Shown: in pieces, positions 8,191 to 36,889 of the stretch
How the letters are laid out: each line of letters starts with the position of its first letter
How positions within the stretch are numbered: position 1 is the first letter of the stretch
DNA from: Escherichia phage vB_EcoM_G17
Direction: 5' to 3' (one strand)
Sequence record: MK327931.1
Length of the DNA stretch: 64,000 nucleotides
The notes under the pieces: generated by a model
What the model was told of the DNA's origin: nothing
The model's database searches: none
What the model saw: the letters and a program-made list of their open reading frames with translations, nothing else
Program-made: the position numbers and the translations under genes

Positions 8191-8688
8191 TTAAGTCACT
8201 GCATTATACTTCTCTATAGCATTAGTAATATTTAATATAGCTTCAGGAACCATTTCTTTATTGTATTCACGTTTTAAATTTTCCATTTTCTTAATAATTT
8301 CCAAGAAAAATGGCAAAATACATGAAGTATCTGTAAAATTACATGAGTACAAAGTACTCATTTGAAATAATTCACCTGAATCAATATTAAGAGATTTGTA
8401 TTCCTTAACAATGTTTTCGTTTGTATTGAAAATATGAAATACTGTTCCCATGTGATGAAGATATACACCATTCTCATTTTGAATATGGCATGGTGTGATT
8501 ACAATAGCAGTGTTGTCAATATTATTTACTATTGATAAACGTAGACTATGTAAACCTAAAATAACAGTACAATCACTTGAACTGCTTTGAATTTGGTCAG
8601 CAGTTTGTGTAACACTTGTAATATTTTCCCCATCAAGACAACTCTTGATTTTATCAAATGAATTTTTCATTGATTTAGTTAGATACAT
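8191..8688 (-). CDS. family A paralog; function unknown
   Basis: core SGELFQMSTLY. Confidence 0.75.
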   Translation of the reverse strand: MYLTKSMKNSFDKIKSCLDGENITSVTQTADQIQSSSSDCTVILGLHSLRLSIVNNIDNTAIVITPCHIQNENGVYLHHMGTVFHIFNTNENIVKEYKSLNIDSGELFQMSTLYSCNFTDTSCILPFFLEIIKKMENLKREYNKEMVPEAILNITNAIEKYNAVT

Positions 8689-9092
8689 TTATGAACACCT
8701 TCGAAATATTTGATTAATGATTTTATCATATCGCTACTAATGCCATGTAAGTCAACACCTAAACACTCGTATTGAAAAAAATCAATATCCTCCAGTGTGT
8801 TTAGATCAATTTCCACCTTATCATGACCCAACGAATTCATAATAACGTTTTTATCATTAATTGTCAAGAAAGTTTTTTTATCTGAACCTAAAAAGATTTT
8901 TACATGTTTTTTTGGCATTACATCATAAGATAAAGATTGTGAACCATAAATGTATATGCCTTCCATTGAACCAATATCTATAAAATATAGACGAATCCCT
9001 TTGTGGTATTTTGACTCCTTAGTGATCGCCTCTATTAGTTCATCTGTGGTTGTTAACCTTGTTTCTTTCTTCTCTAAATTGCTCAAATGCAT
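8679..9092 (-). CDS. family A paralog; function unknown
   Basis: core EDIDFFQYECLG. Confidence 0.7.
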   Translation of the reverse strand: MHLSNLEKKETRLTTTDELIEAITKESKYHKGIRLYFIDIGSMEGIYIYGSQSLSYDVMPKKHVKIFLGSDKKTFLTINDKNVIMNSLGHDKVEIDLNTLEDIDFFQYECLGVDLHGISSDMIKSLIKYFEGVHKCI

Positions 9093-9513
9093 AAAATAAT
9101 ACCTTGATCATTTGTAATGTTTCTGACATTACATCAGCAGAAAATTGAACATCAGTGTATTTTACCATAGTACTTTGAGTAAAGAAAGTAGCTTCAATAT
9201 CTTCAAGGTCAAATGGTTCATCAAATAAATTAGTACTGAACATATCAGTTTTTTTCTTATAAGTCAACATAAACTTAGCACTGTATCTCAATACAATTTC
9301 ATCTTTACTTACTAAAATTCGTGCAATGTTCTGTCTACCCAGTGTTGTAATGTTAACATTAAACGTATTCTTTCGTGCCTCAACAATATCAACGAAATAA
9401 CCATCACCTTGGTAAACGTTATGACGAACTTCTAATCCTTGTTGAACTGTATTGAACAGTGCGTCCTGGATAAAATAATTTGCAGTATCGATGTTTCCTA
9501 AAATATCTAACAT
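9040..9513 (-). CDS. family A paralog (degenerate core); function unknown
   Basis: core EATFFTQSTMV; array position. Confidence 0.6.
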   Translation of the reverse strand: MLDILGNIDTANYFIQDALFNTVQQGLEVRHNVYQGDGYFVDIVEARKNTFNVNITTLGRQNIARILVSKDEIVLRYSAKFMLTYKKKTDMFSTNLFDEPFDLEDIEATFFTQSTMVKYTDVQFSADVMSETLQMIKVLFYAFEQFREERNKVNNHR

Positions 9514-10043
9514 AACTTCTCCTTTATAGCTGTCATATTTAGAAGAAATTCAGTAAGCAATTCCTCCGTAACATGCTCTGTATACCAGAATATCACAATA
9601 TCTTTTGAAAGTCGTGTATTCATAAAAATATCTACTAACTCTTTGTAGAACTCTAGTGTTTCGAGATTTGTGAGAATTAACGAGTACTGAAAGAGTAATT
9701 CTTCCGTTAGATTAAATTCTGGATAAAGTAAATCATTGAACTCATGTGATGCAGTTTGAACTTTAATTTCTTTGAAGTTATTGGTTATACAACCGGAATA
9801 AATATTTCGGTGCAACTCTCTGTACAACGCAGCATAATCTATGAATTTTGCTTTAGGGTTAAAATCAAGAACACTTTCACCTTTATATGACAATCGGTGG
9901 AACGCCGAGAACATAGTCACTTCCCACGGTTGCTTAATATCTAGCTCAGTAATATCAATATTATTGGACAGAAGAACCGTAAAAATCTCACCAATCTTTA
10001 ATAGTAACTTAGTACGTGCCAGTGCTACCATCGGGTCAGTCAT
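9507..10043 (-). CDS. family A paralog; function unknown
   Basis: core TEELLFQYSLIL. Confidence 0.75.
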   Translation of the reverse strand: MTDPMVALARTKLLLKIGEIFTVLLSNNIDITELDIKQPWEVTMFSAFHRLSYKGESVLDFNPKAKFIDYAALYRELHRNIYSGCITNNFKEIKVQTASHEFNDLLYPEFNLTEELLFQYSLILTNLETLEFYKELVDIFMNTRLSKDIVIFWYTEHVTEELLTEFLLNMTAIKEKLC

Positions 10044-10456
10044 TATACACCTTCATATTCATCAAGAAAATCTTCGATAATCATTTCAGCTTCATCCATA
10101 TGCATAGCATCAACTTCAATGATGCGAACTTTAGATGCATCCCAAATCATAAAGCTAGGAACATTATCAGGCTCGTAGTCATTTTTGTACTGAACAGCAT
10201 CATAACCTTGAGCAGTGCAATTCTCAATAAGTGAACGCCACTCATCATCACTGCCTAAATCTTCACACAGAAGCACGTTATCAACATCAACTTCTAAGGT
10301 ATGCAAGTATACTGTACATGCGTCTACTACGTTCAGTGGGCTTCTCAGCTTGCGTAATGCAGCTTCCAAAGCACTGTGTTTACCTCCCATATGAAGACCA
10401 CCATACGGGATATAAAAGTTATCAATTTTTACAGTACTCGCATGATACAGTTTCAT
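10043..10456 (-). CDS. hypothetical protein (not family A)
   Basis: 137-aa ORF, N-term MKLYHASTVKIDNFYIPYGGLHMGG; no FQ core. Confidence 0.7.
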   Translation of the reverse strand: MKLYHASTVKIDNFYIPYGGLHMGGKHSALEAALRKLRSPLNVVDACTVYLHTLEVDVDNVLLCEDLGSDDEWRSLIENCTAQGYDAVQYKNDYEPDNVPSFMIWDASKVRIIEVDAMHMDEAEMIIEDFLDEYEGV

Positions 10457-10465
10457 ATTTCATTC

Positions 10466-11050
10466 CTATTTCAGTACTTTAGTCAATGCTTTCACAGCGG
10501 TTTCGAGTTGAGCATAGTCGTTAATTGTAAGGTAATGAATACCATGTGCCTTCATTTCAGCATCTATTTTACTATATAAATCAAACATGTCAAGGATATG
10601 ATTGTATGCATATGAAGTATTTGAAACACACAATTCTTGGAACAAACGTTCTTCCAAGTCATTCACAACTTCTCCATGAATGTCAAGTACTACACCATCT
10701 TTGTAAGTGTAGTACTCTTCACTCCACTCTTCAGAAAGTCGGAACAGTAACGGATTCCCGCCGAACACTTCCATGTCATAGGAATTTATCTCACTAAGTA
10801 GTGTTTCACCTGGTTCTGGTGTGAAGTCAAAATATGCGAGTGTTGTACCATCATAGTCCTTGAGTGATATACCAGTATGATTTAAGGTTACTTCACCATA
10901 ATTATTATTCTTGAACTTGATTTTGATATTAATCTCAATGTATTTTATTGTCTCATCATCACTGAAATTGTAATCAACTTTATACTTTTTCCAAAGAAGT
11001 TTGATATCTTTGAAGTACTTTAATTTACTTTCAATTTCTTTAAAGTCCAT
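10466..11050 (-). CDS. family A paralog; function unknown
   Basis: core LEERLFQELCVS. Confidence 0.7.
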   Translation of the reverse strand: MDFKEIESKLKYFKDIKLLWKKYKVDYNFSDDETIKYIEINIKIKFKNNNYGEVTLNHTGISLKDYDGTTLAYFDFTPEPGETLLSEINSYDMEVFGGNPLLFRLSEEWSEEYYTYKDGVVLDIHGEVVNDLEERLFQELCVSNTSYAYNHILDMFDLYSKIDAEMKAHGIHYLTINDYAQLETAVKALTKVLK

Positions 11051-35578: not shown

Positions 35579-35879
35579 TGATTCTCCCTGATGTACCTTG
35601 TATTAGCTTATCATACATATCGAGCATCACTTTTTGAATACTAATTAGTACTGGCATCGTGCAAATATCAATGTCGTATACTAAGCTGTACTGGAATAAT
35701 TCATCTTCCTGCATTTGTACTAAATTAGGTAAAGGATAATTGTCTGCCTCTTCATCCTGGTACTTGAAATGCATAACACCATCCTTTTTGTACAAAAGAA
35801 TGTCAATATCACCTAACTCATCAGCATAACCAAAAATACATATACTCGATGTTTTTGCTATATTAAATTTCATCTCCAC
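35553..35879 (-). CDS. family A paralog (short form) embedded among family B genes
   Basis: core QEDELFQYSLVYD. Confidence 0.75.
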   Translation of the reverse strand: MEMKFNIAKTSSICIFGYADELGDIDILLYKKDGVMHFKYQDEEADNYPLPNLVQMQEDELFQYSLVYDIDICTMPVLISIQKVMLDMYDKLIQGTSGRIIEIDIQDN

Positions 35880-36115
35880 CTCTCTCCGTCAGCACAAGAG
35901 TACTGGTACGTTGTCGTTAGGGTAGGGACCATGTTTGTAATGGGCATATTATTAACAATAACGGTAACAGGCATAAGAATCGTCTCTACTCTACTCTGTC
36001 CTGTCCTTGTACAATTCATCTTCTGCATTTCATCTGAATCCATGAAATACAATACAAATGGTGCAATCCCAAGAACAATACACAAGACGATAAGGAAATT
36101 TAAAAAATTTAACAT
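35870..36115 (-). CDS. small membrane protein
   Basis: N-term hydrophobic segment MLNFLNFLIVLCIVLGIAPFVLYF; own promoter upstream. Confidence 0.6.
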   Translation of the reverse strand: MLNFLNFLIVLCIVLGIAPFVLYFMDSDEMQKMNCTRTGQSRVETILMPVTVIVNNMPITNMVPTLTTTYQYSCADGERWR

Positions 36116-36144
36116 AATTTTTACCCTATGATTAACGTTAGTGT

Positions 36145-36173
36145 ACTATATCAGTAATGAAAAGTACTGTCAA
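36145..36173 (-). promoter_or_regulatory. sigma70-like promoter
   Basis: -35 TTGACA (36168-73), 17-nt spacer, -10 TATAGT (36145-50). Confidence 0.65.
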
Positions 36174-36174
36174 G

Positions 36175-36579
36175 CTAGTATTGCACTGTTCTAATGAAAG
36201 TACCTTTACTCATGGATTTAAGCTTATGAACCTCTTCCTGCATACCCTTAATTAACCCTAAAGGTATAGGTAAATCATGTACTAAGCTGTACTGAAAGTA
36301 TTCTTCTTCAGATAAAGTACTAACATCTGGAACGCCAATTTTAGTTATATAATCTTGATGTGTTGACCAATAAATTATATCTTCAGTACTATTGTACTCC
36401 CCATATACTGAACAATATTGATGAATATCTTTCCTGTACCCTTGAGCAATAAAGAACTTATCTAATGCATTACCAGCATTAATAGAATTTACTTCGATTG
36501 TCACAGTACTTGAGCTTGTATAACTCTTAATATTATCAGTACTCTTAATACTCAACGATGTGTTCTTCATAATCACCAT
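36175..36579 (-). CDS. family A paralog (short form)
   Basis: core SEEEYFQYSLVHD. Confidence 0.75.
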   Translation of the reverse strand: MVIMKNTSLSIKSTDNIKSYTSSSTVTIEVNSINAGNALDKFFIAQGYRKDIHQYCSVYGEYNSTEDIIYWSTHQDYITKIGVPDVSTLSEEEYFQYSLVHDLPIPLGLIKGMQEEVHKLKSMSKGTFIRTVQY

Positions 36580-36889
36580 TAGGCTCCTGTTTAGATTCTT
36601 TCATTAGTACTATCATCTTATGTACTAATGGCATAGGGAACTCTAAATCCCATACTAATGATTCCTGGAAGTATTCCTCTGGTGATAAAGTACTTAAATC
36701 TTTAATATCAACGTGCTTGTATATTTTATTTTCGTAATTAACAAATGATATATATAAATCACTAACATAAGAATCATAGGTAATTGTGAATGGCTTACCC
36801 TTGTAATCCATTACATCTCTACATAGACTACTTTTGATATATGTATGTTCAAATGATTTATATACCTTGAGTTGTATATTAGTTTTCAT
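36545..36889 (-). CDS. family A paralog (short form)
   Basis: core SPEEYFQESLVWD. Confidence 0.75.
   Translation of the reverse strand: MKTNIQLKVYKSFEHTYIKSSLCRDVMDYKGKPFTITYDSYVSDLYISFVNYENKIYKHVDIKDLSTLSPEEYFQESLVWDLEFPMPLVHKMIVLMKESKQEPNGDYEEHIVEY

Follow-up and report, generated by a model that had tools for sequence, protein, structure and literature searches.

Organization of the array

The window, a stretch of 64,000 nt, belongs to a 350-kb Asteriusvirus (Sharanji in our analysis) of the 121Q/PBECO4/RaK2-like group. Between positions 8191 and 36889, it carries 56 minus-strand ORFs that are 100 aa or longer and not nested; they abut or overlap, an arrangement already described in the first-pass annotation. 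In this interval, 41 ORFs on the minus strand are demonstrable homologues (family A), while one further ORF is a probable and four to five are marginal members; the head-to-tail array takes up about 8% of the genome of this giant E. coli phage. The earlier count of more than 50 paralogs, with 53 ORFs all bearing a shared core, is overstated, since about nine ORFs of 100 aa or more (at 9040, 10043, 11040, 13323, 14897, 20990, 23477, 32702, and 34766) and four genes of a second family, B, located within 22133-22520 and 35124-35578, are not detectably related to family A. An 81-aa ORF at 35870 also lacks detectable similarity, and a Pfam search of the non-member ORFs in the array found nothing.

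Pairwise phmmer comparison (E < 1e-3) linked 33 array ORFs, and an HMM built from these recruited eight further ORFs outside the seed, giving the total of 41. In leave-one-out HMM tests (E < 1e-3), 40 of the 41 members pass. The eight recruits are 8191-8688 (long, 165 aa; HMM E-value 8.6e-14, leave-one-out 2.3e-4), 9507-10043 (178 aa; leave-one-out 4.8e-6), 10466-11050 (194 aa; 1.4e-5), 11639-12190 (183 aa; 4.4e-5), 31086-31625 (179 aa), 31622-32164 (180 aa as called), 32217-32723 (168 aa) and the weakest member, 30470-31093 (207 aa; HMM E-value 4.2e-10), which scores 0.003 when left out. The true start of 31622-32164 may be downstream, as the called ATG lies inside a promoter -10 box.

Members found by phmmer, HMM and leave-one-out test alike are, among the longer ORFs, 12252-12833 (193 aa; leave-one-out 1.9e-7), 13751-14329 (192 aa), 15551-16117 (188 aa), 16062-16625 (187 aa, having the clearest RaK2 counterpart at 59 bits), 17148-17651 (167 aa), 18364-18858 (164 aa), 18855-19331 (158 aa, the first gene after the promoter at 19394-19365), 19391-19975 (194 aa as called, homologues 178 aa), 20255-20698 (147 aa from a TTG, homologue P0076 125 aa), 21583-22143 (186 aa), 23031-23480 (149 aa), 27668-28231 (187 aa from a TTG), 28847-29470 (207 aa), 29750-30265 (171 aa), 33030-33596 (188 aa) and 33869-34417 (182 aa), together with five consecutive genes in 24096-26417 (24096-24548, 24526-25014, 25014-25457, 25454-25924, and 25926-26417). 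For 27668-28231, homologues of 125-168 aa make a start further in probable. Short members with the same support are 17639-18052 (137 aa), 18036-18398 (120 aa), 19935-20276 (113 aa), 20622-20984 (120 aa), three neighbors in 26427-27510 (26427-26786, 26783-27139, and 27139-27510), 33568-33879 (103 aa), 35553-35879 (108 aa), 36175-36579 (134 aa) and the most upstream copy, 36545-36889 (114 aa), besides the weakest in the seed set, 23785-24099 (104 aa; phmmer and HMM, leave-one-out 2.3e-4). The short and long classes proposed earlier are real, with 12 ORFs below 140 aa and 29 of at least 147 aa as called, two of the latter starting at an upstream TTG and looking over-called.

A probable degenerate member without FQ is 16622-17164 (180 aa; hhalign against the family profile 88%, E-value 2.8e-6). 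An FQ-like core combined with marginal scores was found in 8679-9092, 12817-13326, 14316-14900, 22498-23034, and 29409-29753. Possible members among these are 12817-13326 (core NIEEIEFQNNTLSP; HMM E-value 0.002-0.004, hhalign 46%) and 14316-14900 (core IRDAFIFQKSLLDN; hhalign 19%), the ph0011 orthologue of the latter passing the family HMM at 3e-4.

Conserved core and predicted fold

The family A core reads [ST]-E-E-x-[YLF]-F-Q-x-S-[LT]-[VIL]-[YHFW]-[DN]. F and Q are the sole invariant residues, present in 41 of 41 members. In non-redundant homologues from several phage genera, F and Q are found in 183 of 183 and E-E and S in more than 80%, the remainder being saturated; this F-Q invariance is partly circular, as the matches were chosen with an FQ-dominated profile. 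A strict motif regex gave 33 matches, each of them within the interval and on its minus strand, against 0.01 expected from shuffling, and none in six frames of the rest of the window. Conservation is at the protein level and not that of a DNA repeat, as codons are mixed for F (TTT 21, TTC 20), Q (CAG 25, CAA 16) and S (AGY 23, TCN 10); over the 42 nt of the core, mean nucleotide identity is 49%. Most pairs of members are just 20-30% identical beyond the core. In profile-profile comparison, short and long classes align at 93.6% probability, over the 26 core columns only, and odd and even halves of the family at 96.8%.

The family A products are small alpha+beta proteins of about 100-207 aa, soluble and for the most part acidic. 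Net charge is negative in 37 of 41, as low as -26, and neither a TM-like segment, membrane or periplasmic targeting nor a catalytic signature was found in them. AlphaFold models of a long (24099-24548; pLDDT 75, pTM 0.72) and a short form (26786-27139; pLDDT 82, pTM 0.81) predict a common scaffold of an antiparallel beta-sheet, the short F-Q helix, a longer helix and a final strand, to which an N-terminal helix and C-terminal elements would be added in long forms. In both models, confidence is highest for the FQ region, which appears as a helix within a compact domain. That the family was not recognised at first is in line with Pfam, NCBIfam, PADLOC, and PDB profile and sequence searches, which gave no credible match; all PHROGs matches are of unknown function, and BFVD structure matches are family A members from six other phages.

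Related phages, duplication history and selection

Copies of family A number 36-37 in ph0011, 39 in phAPEC6, 22-29 in RaK2, 15-24 in Salmonella phage 7t3 and 4-9 in GAP32, where array members without FQ score poorly and may, as in 7t3, have been missed. The locus is conserved, adjoining the same Dam and cytidyltransferase genes in all five phages. Family A is a lineage-specific multigene family of RaK2-like jumbo myoviruses, with at least 41 copies in the window phage. Gene content of the block is variable across Asteriusvirus genomes, with coverage from 53 to 100%, and ph0011 lacks an orthologue for 5 of the 41 members. A tandem array in 121Q received a one-sentence mention by Hua et al. (2017), who proposed tandem duplication as a way in which jumbo-phage genomes grow.

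The array arose by repeated tandem duplication and divergence. The five genes in 24096-26417 share 35-56% mutual identity and constitute a DNA repeat family, D1, while a second young cluster of three to four genes covers 26427-28231. Also the truncated copy noted earlier is real: 85 nt at 27586-27670 duplicate the N-terminus of 26783-27139 (27057-27141) at 96% identity. In gene order, nearest paralogs are somewhat closer than by chance (mean rank distance 10.6 versus 14.1 ± 1.7). However, most paralogs of the window phage are old, their mutual distances matching those to RaK2 or 7t3 homologues. The median dN/dS of 36 orthologue pairs between the window phage and ph0011 is 0.25; pooled bins of 10 codons span 0.14-0.41, with no bin close to 1, and are lowest in the core (0.14-0.20). 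Accordingly, the copies are held under purifying selection between these two phages, and diversifying selection, sought by orthologue dN/dS at gene and region level, was not found. An expanding, fast-diverging family, as first described, is therefore seen only locally, in the two young clusters and the truncated duplicate, and the proposed ongoing arms race has no gene-level sign, since paralogs are mostly old and under purifying selection.

Transcription signals and genome position

The promoters and terminators reported earlier near 12.2, 15.5, 19.4, 32.2, and 36.1 kb are present, all on the minus strand. Intergenic gaps hold sigma-70 promoters at 19365-19394 (12/12 consensus plus extended -10) and 36145-36173 (11/12 plus TG). 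In 32163-32229, an intrinsic terminator (32229-32208) is followed by a sigma-70 promoter (32191-32163; 11/12 plus TG), and in 15491-15552, a terminator (15552-15533) by a promoter-like site (15519-15491; 10/12 plus TG). A terminator hairpin at 12225-12247 contains TTGACT, a composite which also occurs in the RaK2 array (L004 16920-16958). Between 7.5 and 47 kb, the minus strand has 12 promoter matches scoring 11/12 or better, six of them in the few intergenic gaps and three of these six inside the array (19394, 32191, and 36173). Strong matches favor the coding strand by 12:2, whereas promoter-like sites in total are no more numerous than shuffling predicts; only placement and strand of the best matches are informative. 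RaK2 follows the same pattern, the annotation of GAP32 places TTGACA-N-TATAAT promoters and also terminators upstream of its array, and the CBB authors consider the equivalent region early.

By alignment to fEgEco12, whose termini are experimentally confirmed, the terminal repeat would have its inner edge near 43.3 kb of the window, and the repeat length reported for vB_Ec-M-J leads to the same figure. The array would thus lie just inside the left direct terminal repeat, oriented like the surrounding genes. From these signals, early expression of the array is probable. In the virion proteome of phAPEC6 (98.6% identical; 62 proteins), the array orthologues gp404c-gp466c are absent, with the proviso that mass spectrometry can miss low-copy proteins. 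Family A is almost certainly a real, homologous and non-structural family.

Possible function of family A

As the genes look early-expressed and their products are absent from the virus particle, binding of host proteins is the probable role, and we tentatively favor an array serving as a battery of non-enzymatic binders of host or defence proteins. It would be split into several operons by intrinsic terminators and by sigma-70 promoters of the host consensus type, so that host RNA polymerase would transcribe it within the first few minutes of infection. Lacking a catalytic signature, the proteins would act by stoichiometric binding: the FQ-helix scaffold may display surfaces specific to each paralog, each of which would bind a host protein of its own and neutralise or redirect it. 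Candidate targets are defence-system components or host housekeeping factors, possibly including DNA-binding defence components for the most acidic copies. The host-interaction context suggested at first is supported by the position at the terminal repeat, the gap promoters, the absence from the virion and copy numbers varying from 4-9 to at least 41, but not by any arms-race selection signal.

The invariant Gln amid saturated divergence hints at a common function and is left unexplained by a pure-scaffold model. It might mean that the EE-x-[YF]-F-Q-x-S helix docks all paralogs on one common partner, either a phage machine or a host hub such as a chaperone, protease or RNA polymerase, to which the variable beta-sheet recruits different clients. 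This appears rather unlikely, albeit in line with the 183 of 183 conservation, the lowest dN/dS and best modelling at the FQ helix in both forms, and with an FQ module that, being kept in short forms, is the minimal unit. However, the profile-based choice of matches makes the invariance partly circular, members without FQ in 7t3 and GAP32 may be missed rather than absent, and a buried Phe together with a Gln that caps a helix could have a structural role only.

Early-type signals, a non-structural nature and variable copy number would also suit a role against other phages, i.e., superinfection exclusion, immunity to competing phages or satellites, or neutralisation of polymorphic toxins, with one paralog per competitor variant. 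Many immunity proteins are small and acidic, as are those of family A. Nevertheless, we regard this as improbable: neither a toxin nor an effector partner gene lies among the array genes, the non-member ORFs giving nothing in Pfam, the membrane or periplasmic targeting common in exclusion proteins is missing, and there is no similarity to PADLOC defence proteins.

Still less probable is that largely dispensable duplicates with little specific function for each copy are kept as extra DNA that a larger headful capsid tolerates or requires (the ratchet of Hua et al., 2017). Their duplication route, citing the 121Q array, the 53-100% block coverage and the truncated copy fit such filler, but dN/dS is about 0.25 in every protein part, reading frames are intact, promoters and terminators are maintained, and the same locus is kept from GAP32 to the window phage despite saturating divergence.

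The potyviral NIa/TEV protease cleaves at E-x-x-Y-x-Q|G/S, and because of this resemblance E-E-x-Y-F-Q-(G/S/...) could be read as a processing site of pro-proteins for a Gln-specific protease. By eye, 18364-18858 (EEMYFQG) and 23031-23480 (EEGYFQG) fit, yet the reading is very improbable, as Q is mostly followed by Y, L, Q, N, or E and not by G or S, the models confidently place the stretch in a helix of a compact domain and not in an exposed linker, and we know of no such protease in these phages. Finally, a chance motif or DNA-level repeat in non-homologous ORFs, which low identity outside the core and the 26-column alignment of the classes might suggest, is refuted by significant HMM, leave-one-out and profile-profile tests, the motif count, mixed synonymous codons, a fold consistent between the AlphaFold models of both classes and BFVD matches to family members in six other phages.

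If family A indeed represents a battery of host- or defence-protein binders, a bigger repertoire would mean that more host genotypes are covered. Among known systems, docking on a common partner would resemble the viral F-box/PRANC or BTB substrate-adaptor families, while a set of paralogs directed at competing phages would be comparable to orphan immunity gene arrays.

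Delineation of Family A and Its Conserved Core

Between window positions 8191 and 36889, the minus strand carries 56 non-nested ORFs of 100 aa or more, nearly all of them overlapping or abutting, in an array of about 31% GC in which every gene lies on the minus strand. By all-against-all phmmer, 33 of these ORFs are connected at E < 1e-3, and an HMM built from this seed adds eight further ORFs, converging at 41 members (E < 1e-3) of the FQ-core paralogs termed family A. In leave-one-out searches, E < 1e-3 was obtained for 40 of the 41 members and 0.003 for the ORF at 30470-31093, while hhalign comparison of the odd with the even half of the family gave a probability of 96.8%. 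The HMM, leave-one-out and hhalign results all support homology of these 41 ORFs, speaking against the non-homology that the first-pass annotation had kept in view. Beyond these members, 16622-17164 is a probable degenerate copy (profile-profile comparison, 88%), and five ORFs with an FQ-like core (at 12817, 14316, 22498, 29409, and 8679) reach only marginal scores. Within the interval, nine ORFs of 100 aa or more and an 81-aa ORF at 35870 have no relationship to family A detectable by HMM or hhalign, and four genes within 8191-36889 belong to a second small-protein family, termed family B. Hence, the count for family A is 41 firm members and up to 47, so that the initial claim of more than 50 copies all sharing the core was overstated.

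The core lies in the C-terminal third and, as derived from 183 non-redundant homologues, has the consensus [ST]-E-E-x-[YLF]-F-Q-x-S-[LT]-[VIL]-[YHFW]-[DN]. F-Q is the sole invariant pair (41/41 members, 183/183 homologues), an invariance which is partly circular because the homologues were picked with an FQ-weighted profile. When the 64-kb window is translated in all six frames, a strict core regular expression matches 33 times, always on the minus strand and within the array interval, compared to 0.01 matches expected from shuffled sequence. Codons for the core residues are mixed (F: TTT 21, TTC 20; Q: CAG 25, CAA 16; S: AGY 23, TCN 10), and mean nucleotide identity of the 42-nt core among copies is 49%. 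Core conservation is thus at the protein level and not a DNA repeat; long DNA repeats are confined to one young cluster and one truncated copy.

Family A proteins are mostly acidic, with a net negative charge in 37 of the 41 members (minimum -26), and TM-like segments are found in none of them, the proteins reading as soluble. An AlphaFold2 model of the long form, using the paralogs as alignment (pLDDT 75, pTM 0.72), predicts an N-terminal helix, an ill-defined beta region, a short FQ helix, a longer helix and a strand, whereas the model of the short form (pLDDT 82, pTM 0.81) predicts five strands, the FQ helix, a long helix and a last strand. In both models, confidence is highest in the FQ region. 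Sequence alignment between the short class (<140 aa) and the long class (at least 147 aa) spans just 26 core columns, while the predicted order of secondary structure elements is common to both. In a 242-aa homologue from an E. coli-labelled jumbo-phage contig (P0003), two short-class copies are fused head to tail, each with its FQ core, indicating that neighbouring copies are able to fuse into one reading frame.

Comparison With Known Families

Searching Pfam, NCBIfam and PADLOC with the 41 members resulted in scattered weak single-member matches, the best being PADLOC JAB at E = 9e-5 for one member. No family was matched by more than one member, and no match against Pfam-A, NCBIfam or PADLOC passed curated thresholds or was consistent across members. 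Likewise, the family A profile has no match among PDB sequences, and extra known domains were found on none of the homologues. Against PHROGs, the 41 members match 27 groups, all of "unknown function", several at E < 1e-60. PHROGs 12674, 13866, 9317, and 15629 and about 23 singleton-like PHROGs represent the same proteins as family A, divided among many unconnected groups in which the unity of the family and the FQ core are unrecorded and no function, motif or fold is given. In line with the first-pass annotation, in which the family had not been recognised, the Pfam and PHROGs searches thus returned no characterised family. Significant structural neighbours in BFVD come only from 121Q, SP27, and RaK2 and are all uncharacterised proteins; weaker matches are to GAP32, Serratia phage BF, Yersinia fHe-Yen9-04 and an Erwinia jumbo phage.

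In Asteriusvirus records, the array genes are annotated as "hypothetical protein", though phAPEC6 gp447c, the orthologue of the family A gene at 27668-28231, carries the label "amidohydrolase 3"; in Pfam, none of the 41 members matches an amidohydrolase family. The annotation as "putative ADP-ribosyl transferase" of the orthologue of 10043-10456 in the relative ph0011 has no Pfam support in the orthologue from Sharanji, the Asteriusvirus jumbo phage to which the window is assigned. Also considered was the bacterial beta-clamp-binding motif, which is QL[SD]LF-like (Q-x-[SD]-L-x-F) and lies in a flexible segment. This assignment was rejected, as T occupies the L position in 83 of the 183 homologues, Y, H or W is as common as F at the final position, and the FQ motif is predicted to lie within the folded core rather than in a flexible segment.

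Distribution, Age, and Selection

By megablast, the window is 100% identical to Escherichia phage Sharanji OR545507.1 (350,079 bp) and 96-99.5% identical to other Asteriusvirus jumbo phages (SHEFM2K, phAPEC6, 121Q, PBECO4). At window 27556-27632, the offsets of two OR545507.1 matches differ by 77 bp, the record end mapping to 27632 and its start to 27556, which suggests that this record carries a 77-bp end overlap, as is typical of an assembler k-mer, and that its origin falls within the family A array.

Among 1.84 billion representative proteins, the profile found 148 clusters, all with the motif and many with representatives less than 35% identical to any Sharanji copy. Locating the locus in relatives via the neighbouring cytidyltransferase gene, 36-37 family A copies were counted in ph0011, 39 in phAPEC6, 22-29 in Klebsiella phage RaK2, 15-24 in Salmonella phage 7t3 and 4-9 in Cronobacter phage GAP32, copy number across relatives ranging from 4-9 up to 41 or more. 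In all of these and in the window, the tandem array occupies the same position between the small-ORF/terminal-repeat region and the Dam and cytidyltransferase genes. In the PA5oct-like Pseudomonas phage Callisto, no equivalent array was found at that position (annotated region L010 600-24500); this region, near the cytidyltransferase homologue, is annotated with the full proteostasis set of IbpB, ClpS, FtsH, ClpP, DnaJ, and ClpA. On the metagenomic contigs of three distant representatives (P0078, P0117, and P0169; 1.3-3 kb), the neighbouring genes run in the same direction and are of similar size.

Most Sharanji paralogs are 20-30% identical to one another and at least as distant from each other as from the homologues in RaK2 or 7t3, and the family is therefore old. 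Younger copies on the minus strand form clusters at 24096-26417 (five genes with up to 56% identity) and 26427-28231, and the truncated copy at 27586-27670 (minus strand, 85 nt) matches the start of 26783-27139 at 96% identity, indicating that duplication is ongoing.

Between Sharanji and ph0011, the 36 reciprocal-best orthologue pairs have a median dN/dS of 0.25. Pooling by region gives 0.14-0.20 for the core, 0.28 for the part upstream of it and 0.27 for the part downstream, and in these pairwise comparisons the highest value of any 10-codon bin is 0.41 or below, no region coming near 1. Five members have no ph0011 orthologue, and coverage of the array block across Asteriusvirus genomes varies from 53% to 100%. 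Together, these data indicate functional, individually constrained genes which undergo turnover but without gene-level positive selection. The arms race proposed at the outset has only partial support.

Genome Position and Expression Signals

By alignment with fEgEco12, whose termini have been confirmed by experiment, the direct terminal repeat (~21 kb) is placed with its inner edge near window 43.3 kb, and this position is also obtained from the published repeat length of vB_Ec-M-J; the Sharanji terminal repeat is 20,668 bp long. The order from that genome end is terminal repeat, family B, family A, and Dam methylase and cytidyltransferase genes, all in one direction. Beyond the inferred repeat boundary (about 43266-43484), the 43.3-64 kb region holds small genes with gaps between them, several preceded by perfect sigma-70 consensus promoters (46640, 45116, and 44668). 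Three small paralog pairs were also detected (phmmer E < 1e-3; 49086-49490/61268-61570, 49577-49900/55695-56018, and 280-591/582-848), two of which fall in the terminal-repeat region.

Family B comprises 32 genes on the minus strand, each encoding 63-96 aa and sharing the conserved motif LGTNYQE; they are located at 36879-43265 directly upstream of family A and, within the array, at 22133-22520 and 35124-35578. A relationship between the two families was ruled out by an hhalign probability of 0.2%. A seeming intergenic gap in family B (41625-41778) encodes a family B C-terminus (...MLYFLGTSHQNFYIHEHIVALTNLIRDKCK) and is probably a decayed or truncated copy. Pfam searches with ten family B proteins and with 20 non-member or neighbouring ORFs gave nothing credible.

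The few intergenic gaps of the array hold predicted terminator-then-promoter modules. On the minus strand, predicted sigma-70 promoters are found at 19394-19365 (perfect TTGACA-18-TATAAT with extended -10), 36173-36145, and 32191-32163 (both 11/12 with TG), besides a promoter-like site at 15519-15491 (10/12) and hairpin terminators at 12247-12225, 15552-15533, and 32229-32208. The overall number of promoter-like sites is no higher than expected from shuffling. However, strong matches on the coding versus the other strand stand at 12:2, and of the 12 strongest coding-strand matches in 7.5-47 kb, six sit in gaps, three of these inside the array. The RaK2 array displays the same promoter/terminator pattern. 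Common to window 12225-12247 and RaK2 (L004 16920-16958) is a composite G+C-rich terminator hairpin with TTGACT in loop and stem, and this -35-like element within the hairpin indicates that the terminator overlaps the next promoter. Similar promoters were marked upstream of the GAP32 array by the annotators of that phage, and the equivalent region is treated as early by the CBB authors. Evidence on virion content is indirect: in phAPEC6, a different phage with 98.6% identity, none of the orthologues (gp404c-gp466c) is among 62 virion proteins (Table 1 of PMC7247149).

Discussion

We show that family A is a real, old, non-structural and tandem-duplicated protein family under purifying selection, with a fold lacking a PDB match. 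The finding is real and worth experiments. The array would be transcribed early by host RNA polymerase, and a common scaffold would display paralog-specific surfaces, each for a different host protein, with defence components or housekeeping factors as targets. As family A has no catalytic signature, the proteins would act as stoichiometric binders, and binding of different host proteins is the tentative reading of the sequences that we favour, one which may quite possibly hold.

The main alternative, which we consider rather unlikely, is an adaptor role in which the invariant FQ helix docks every copy onto one common partner. The absolute conservation of the Gln fits such docking, although this invariance is partly circular. 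A further, still less likely proposal by analogy is that family A might be a phage counterpart of substrate-adaptor multigene families of eukaryotic viruses, in which the EE-x-[YF]-FQ-x-S helix would plug at least 41 paralogs into one host or phage hub while diversified beta-sheets would deliver dozens of host proteins, for example defence effectors, for inactivation; host takeover by such a system would be programmable and modular, and its fold would be new. The remaining explanations are less well supported. Phage-versus-phage exclusion or immunity appears improbable, and near-neutral filler DNA, set against the constraint observed on the individual genes, very improbable. That the FQ stretch is a protease site is hardly credible: the NIa/TEV-type cleavage site is E-x-x-Y-x-Q followed by G or S and needs an accessible linker, but the residue after Q is mostly Y, L, Q, N or E and the FQ motif sits in a confidently predicted helix. 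The chance that the family is an artefact is negligible in view of the profile-level homology.

Returning to binding of different host proteins, copies inhibiting defence or host factors would make the array a rich source of new inhibitors and a host-range determinant, whereas a common docking partner would represent a new modular takeover mechanism. RaK2-like jumbo phages (121Q, PBECO4, phAPEC6, RaK2, K64-1, GAP32, and others) are in therapy development against E. coli, Klebsiella, and Cronobacter, and over 80% of their genes lack an assigned function. Family A accounts for about 8% of the genome, about 10% together with family B, and occupies one locus across several genera with differing copy number. 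Once it is defined as a single family, with an HMM, a motif and a pair of usable structure models, about 40 "hypothetical proteins" in each genome reduce to one tractable problem, namely the benefit to a phage of carrying dozens of diverged copies of the same small, putatively early protein.

[quoted passage not shown] Both remarks concern the same phage group and phenomenon, without coordinates, motif, structure, distribution or function, and the former may refer to family B. Beyond these two lines, neither of which defines the family, nothing on family A was found in the literature, and it goes unmentioned in the Sharanji paper. Large viruses are already known to carry tandem multigene families; within that kind, the FQ-core family is new and uncharacterised. 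A comparable case is the zinc-ribbon expansion of Bacillus phage G with about 35 copies (Iyer et al., 2021; PMC7824862). In both, a single small protein has undergone lineage-specific expansion in a jumbo phage and reached dozens of copies, but the phage G family has a recognisable zinc-ribbon fold, suggesting DNA binding, whereas family A is acidic and lacks a recognisable domain or metal-binding residues.

The T5 pre-early region, the SPO1 terminal-redundancy host-takeover module and the T4 hyperplastic regions are blocks of small genes that are driven by host promoters and look non-essential; they lie close to genome ends or in plastic regions, and their products bind host proteins. These blocks are mosaics of unrelated ORFans, in contrast to the dozens of copies of one fold in the family A array. 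The acidic DNA-mimic anti-restriction proteins Ocr and ArdA and the anti-CRISPR proteins are small, early and non-enzymatic defence inhibitors. While the most acidic family A paralogs (net -20 to -26) have a charge density comparable to Ocr/ArdA-type proteins, no sequence or fold similarity to characterised anti-defence proteins (Ocr/ArdA DNA mimics, Acr families) was found. The terminal multigene families of large eukaryotic DNA viruses, such as ASFV MGF360/505, the poxvirus host-range families and "genomic accordions", have roles in host range and immune evasion that were demonstrated with deletion mutants. Their sequences and hosts are unrelated to those of family A, in which recent amplification is visible only in two small clusters. 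Nevertheless, terminus-adjacent tandem paralogs, strain-variable copy number and a non-structural nature are common to both, and it is most plausibly these viral families that family A works like.
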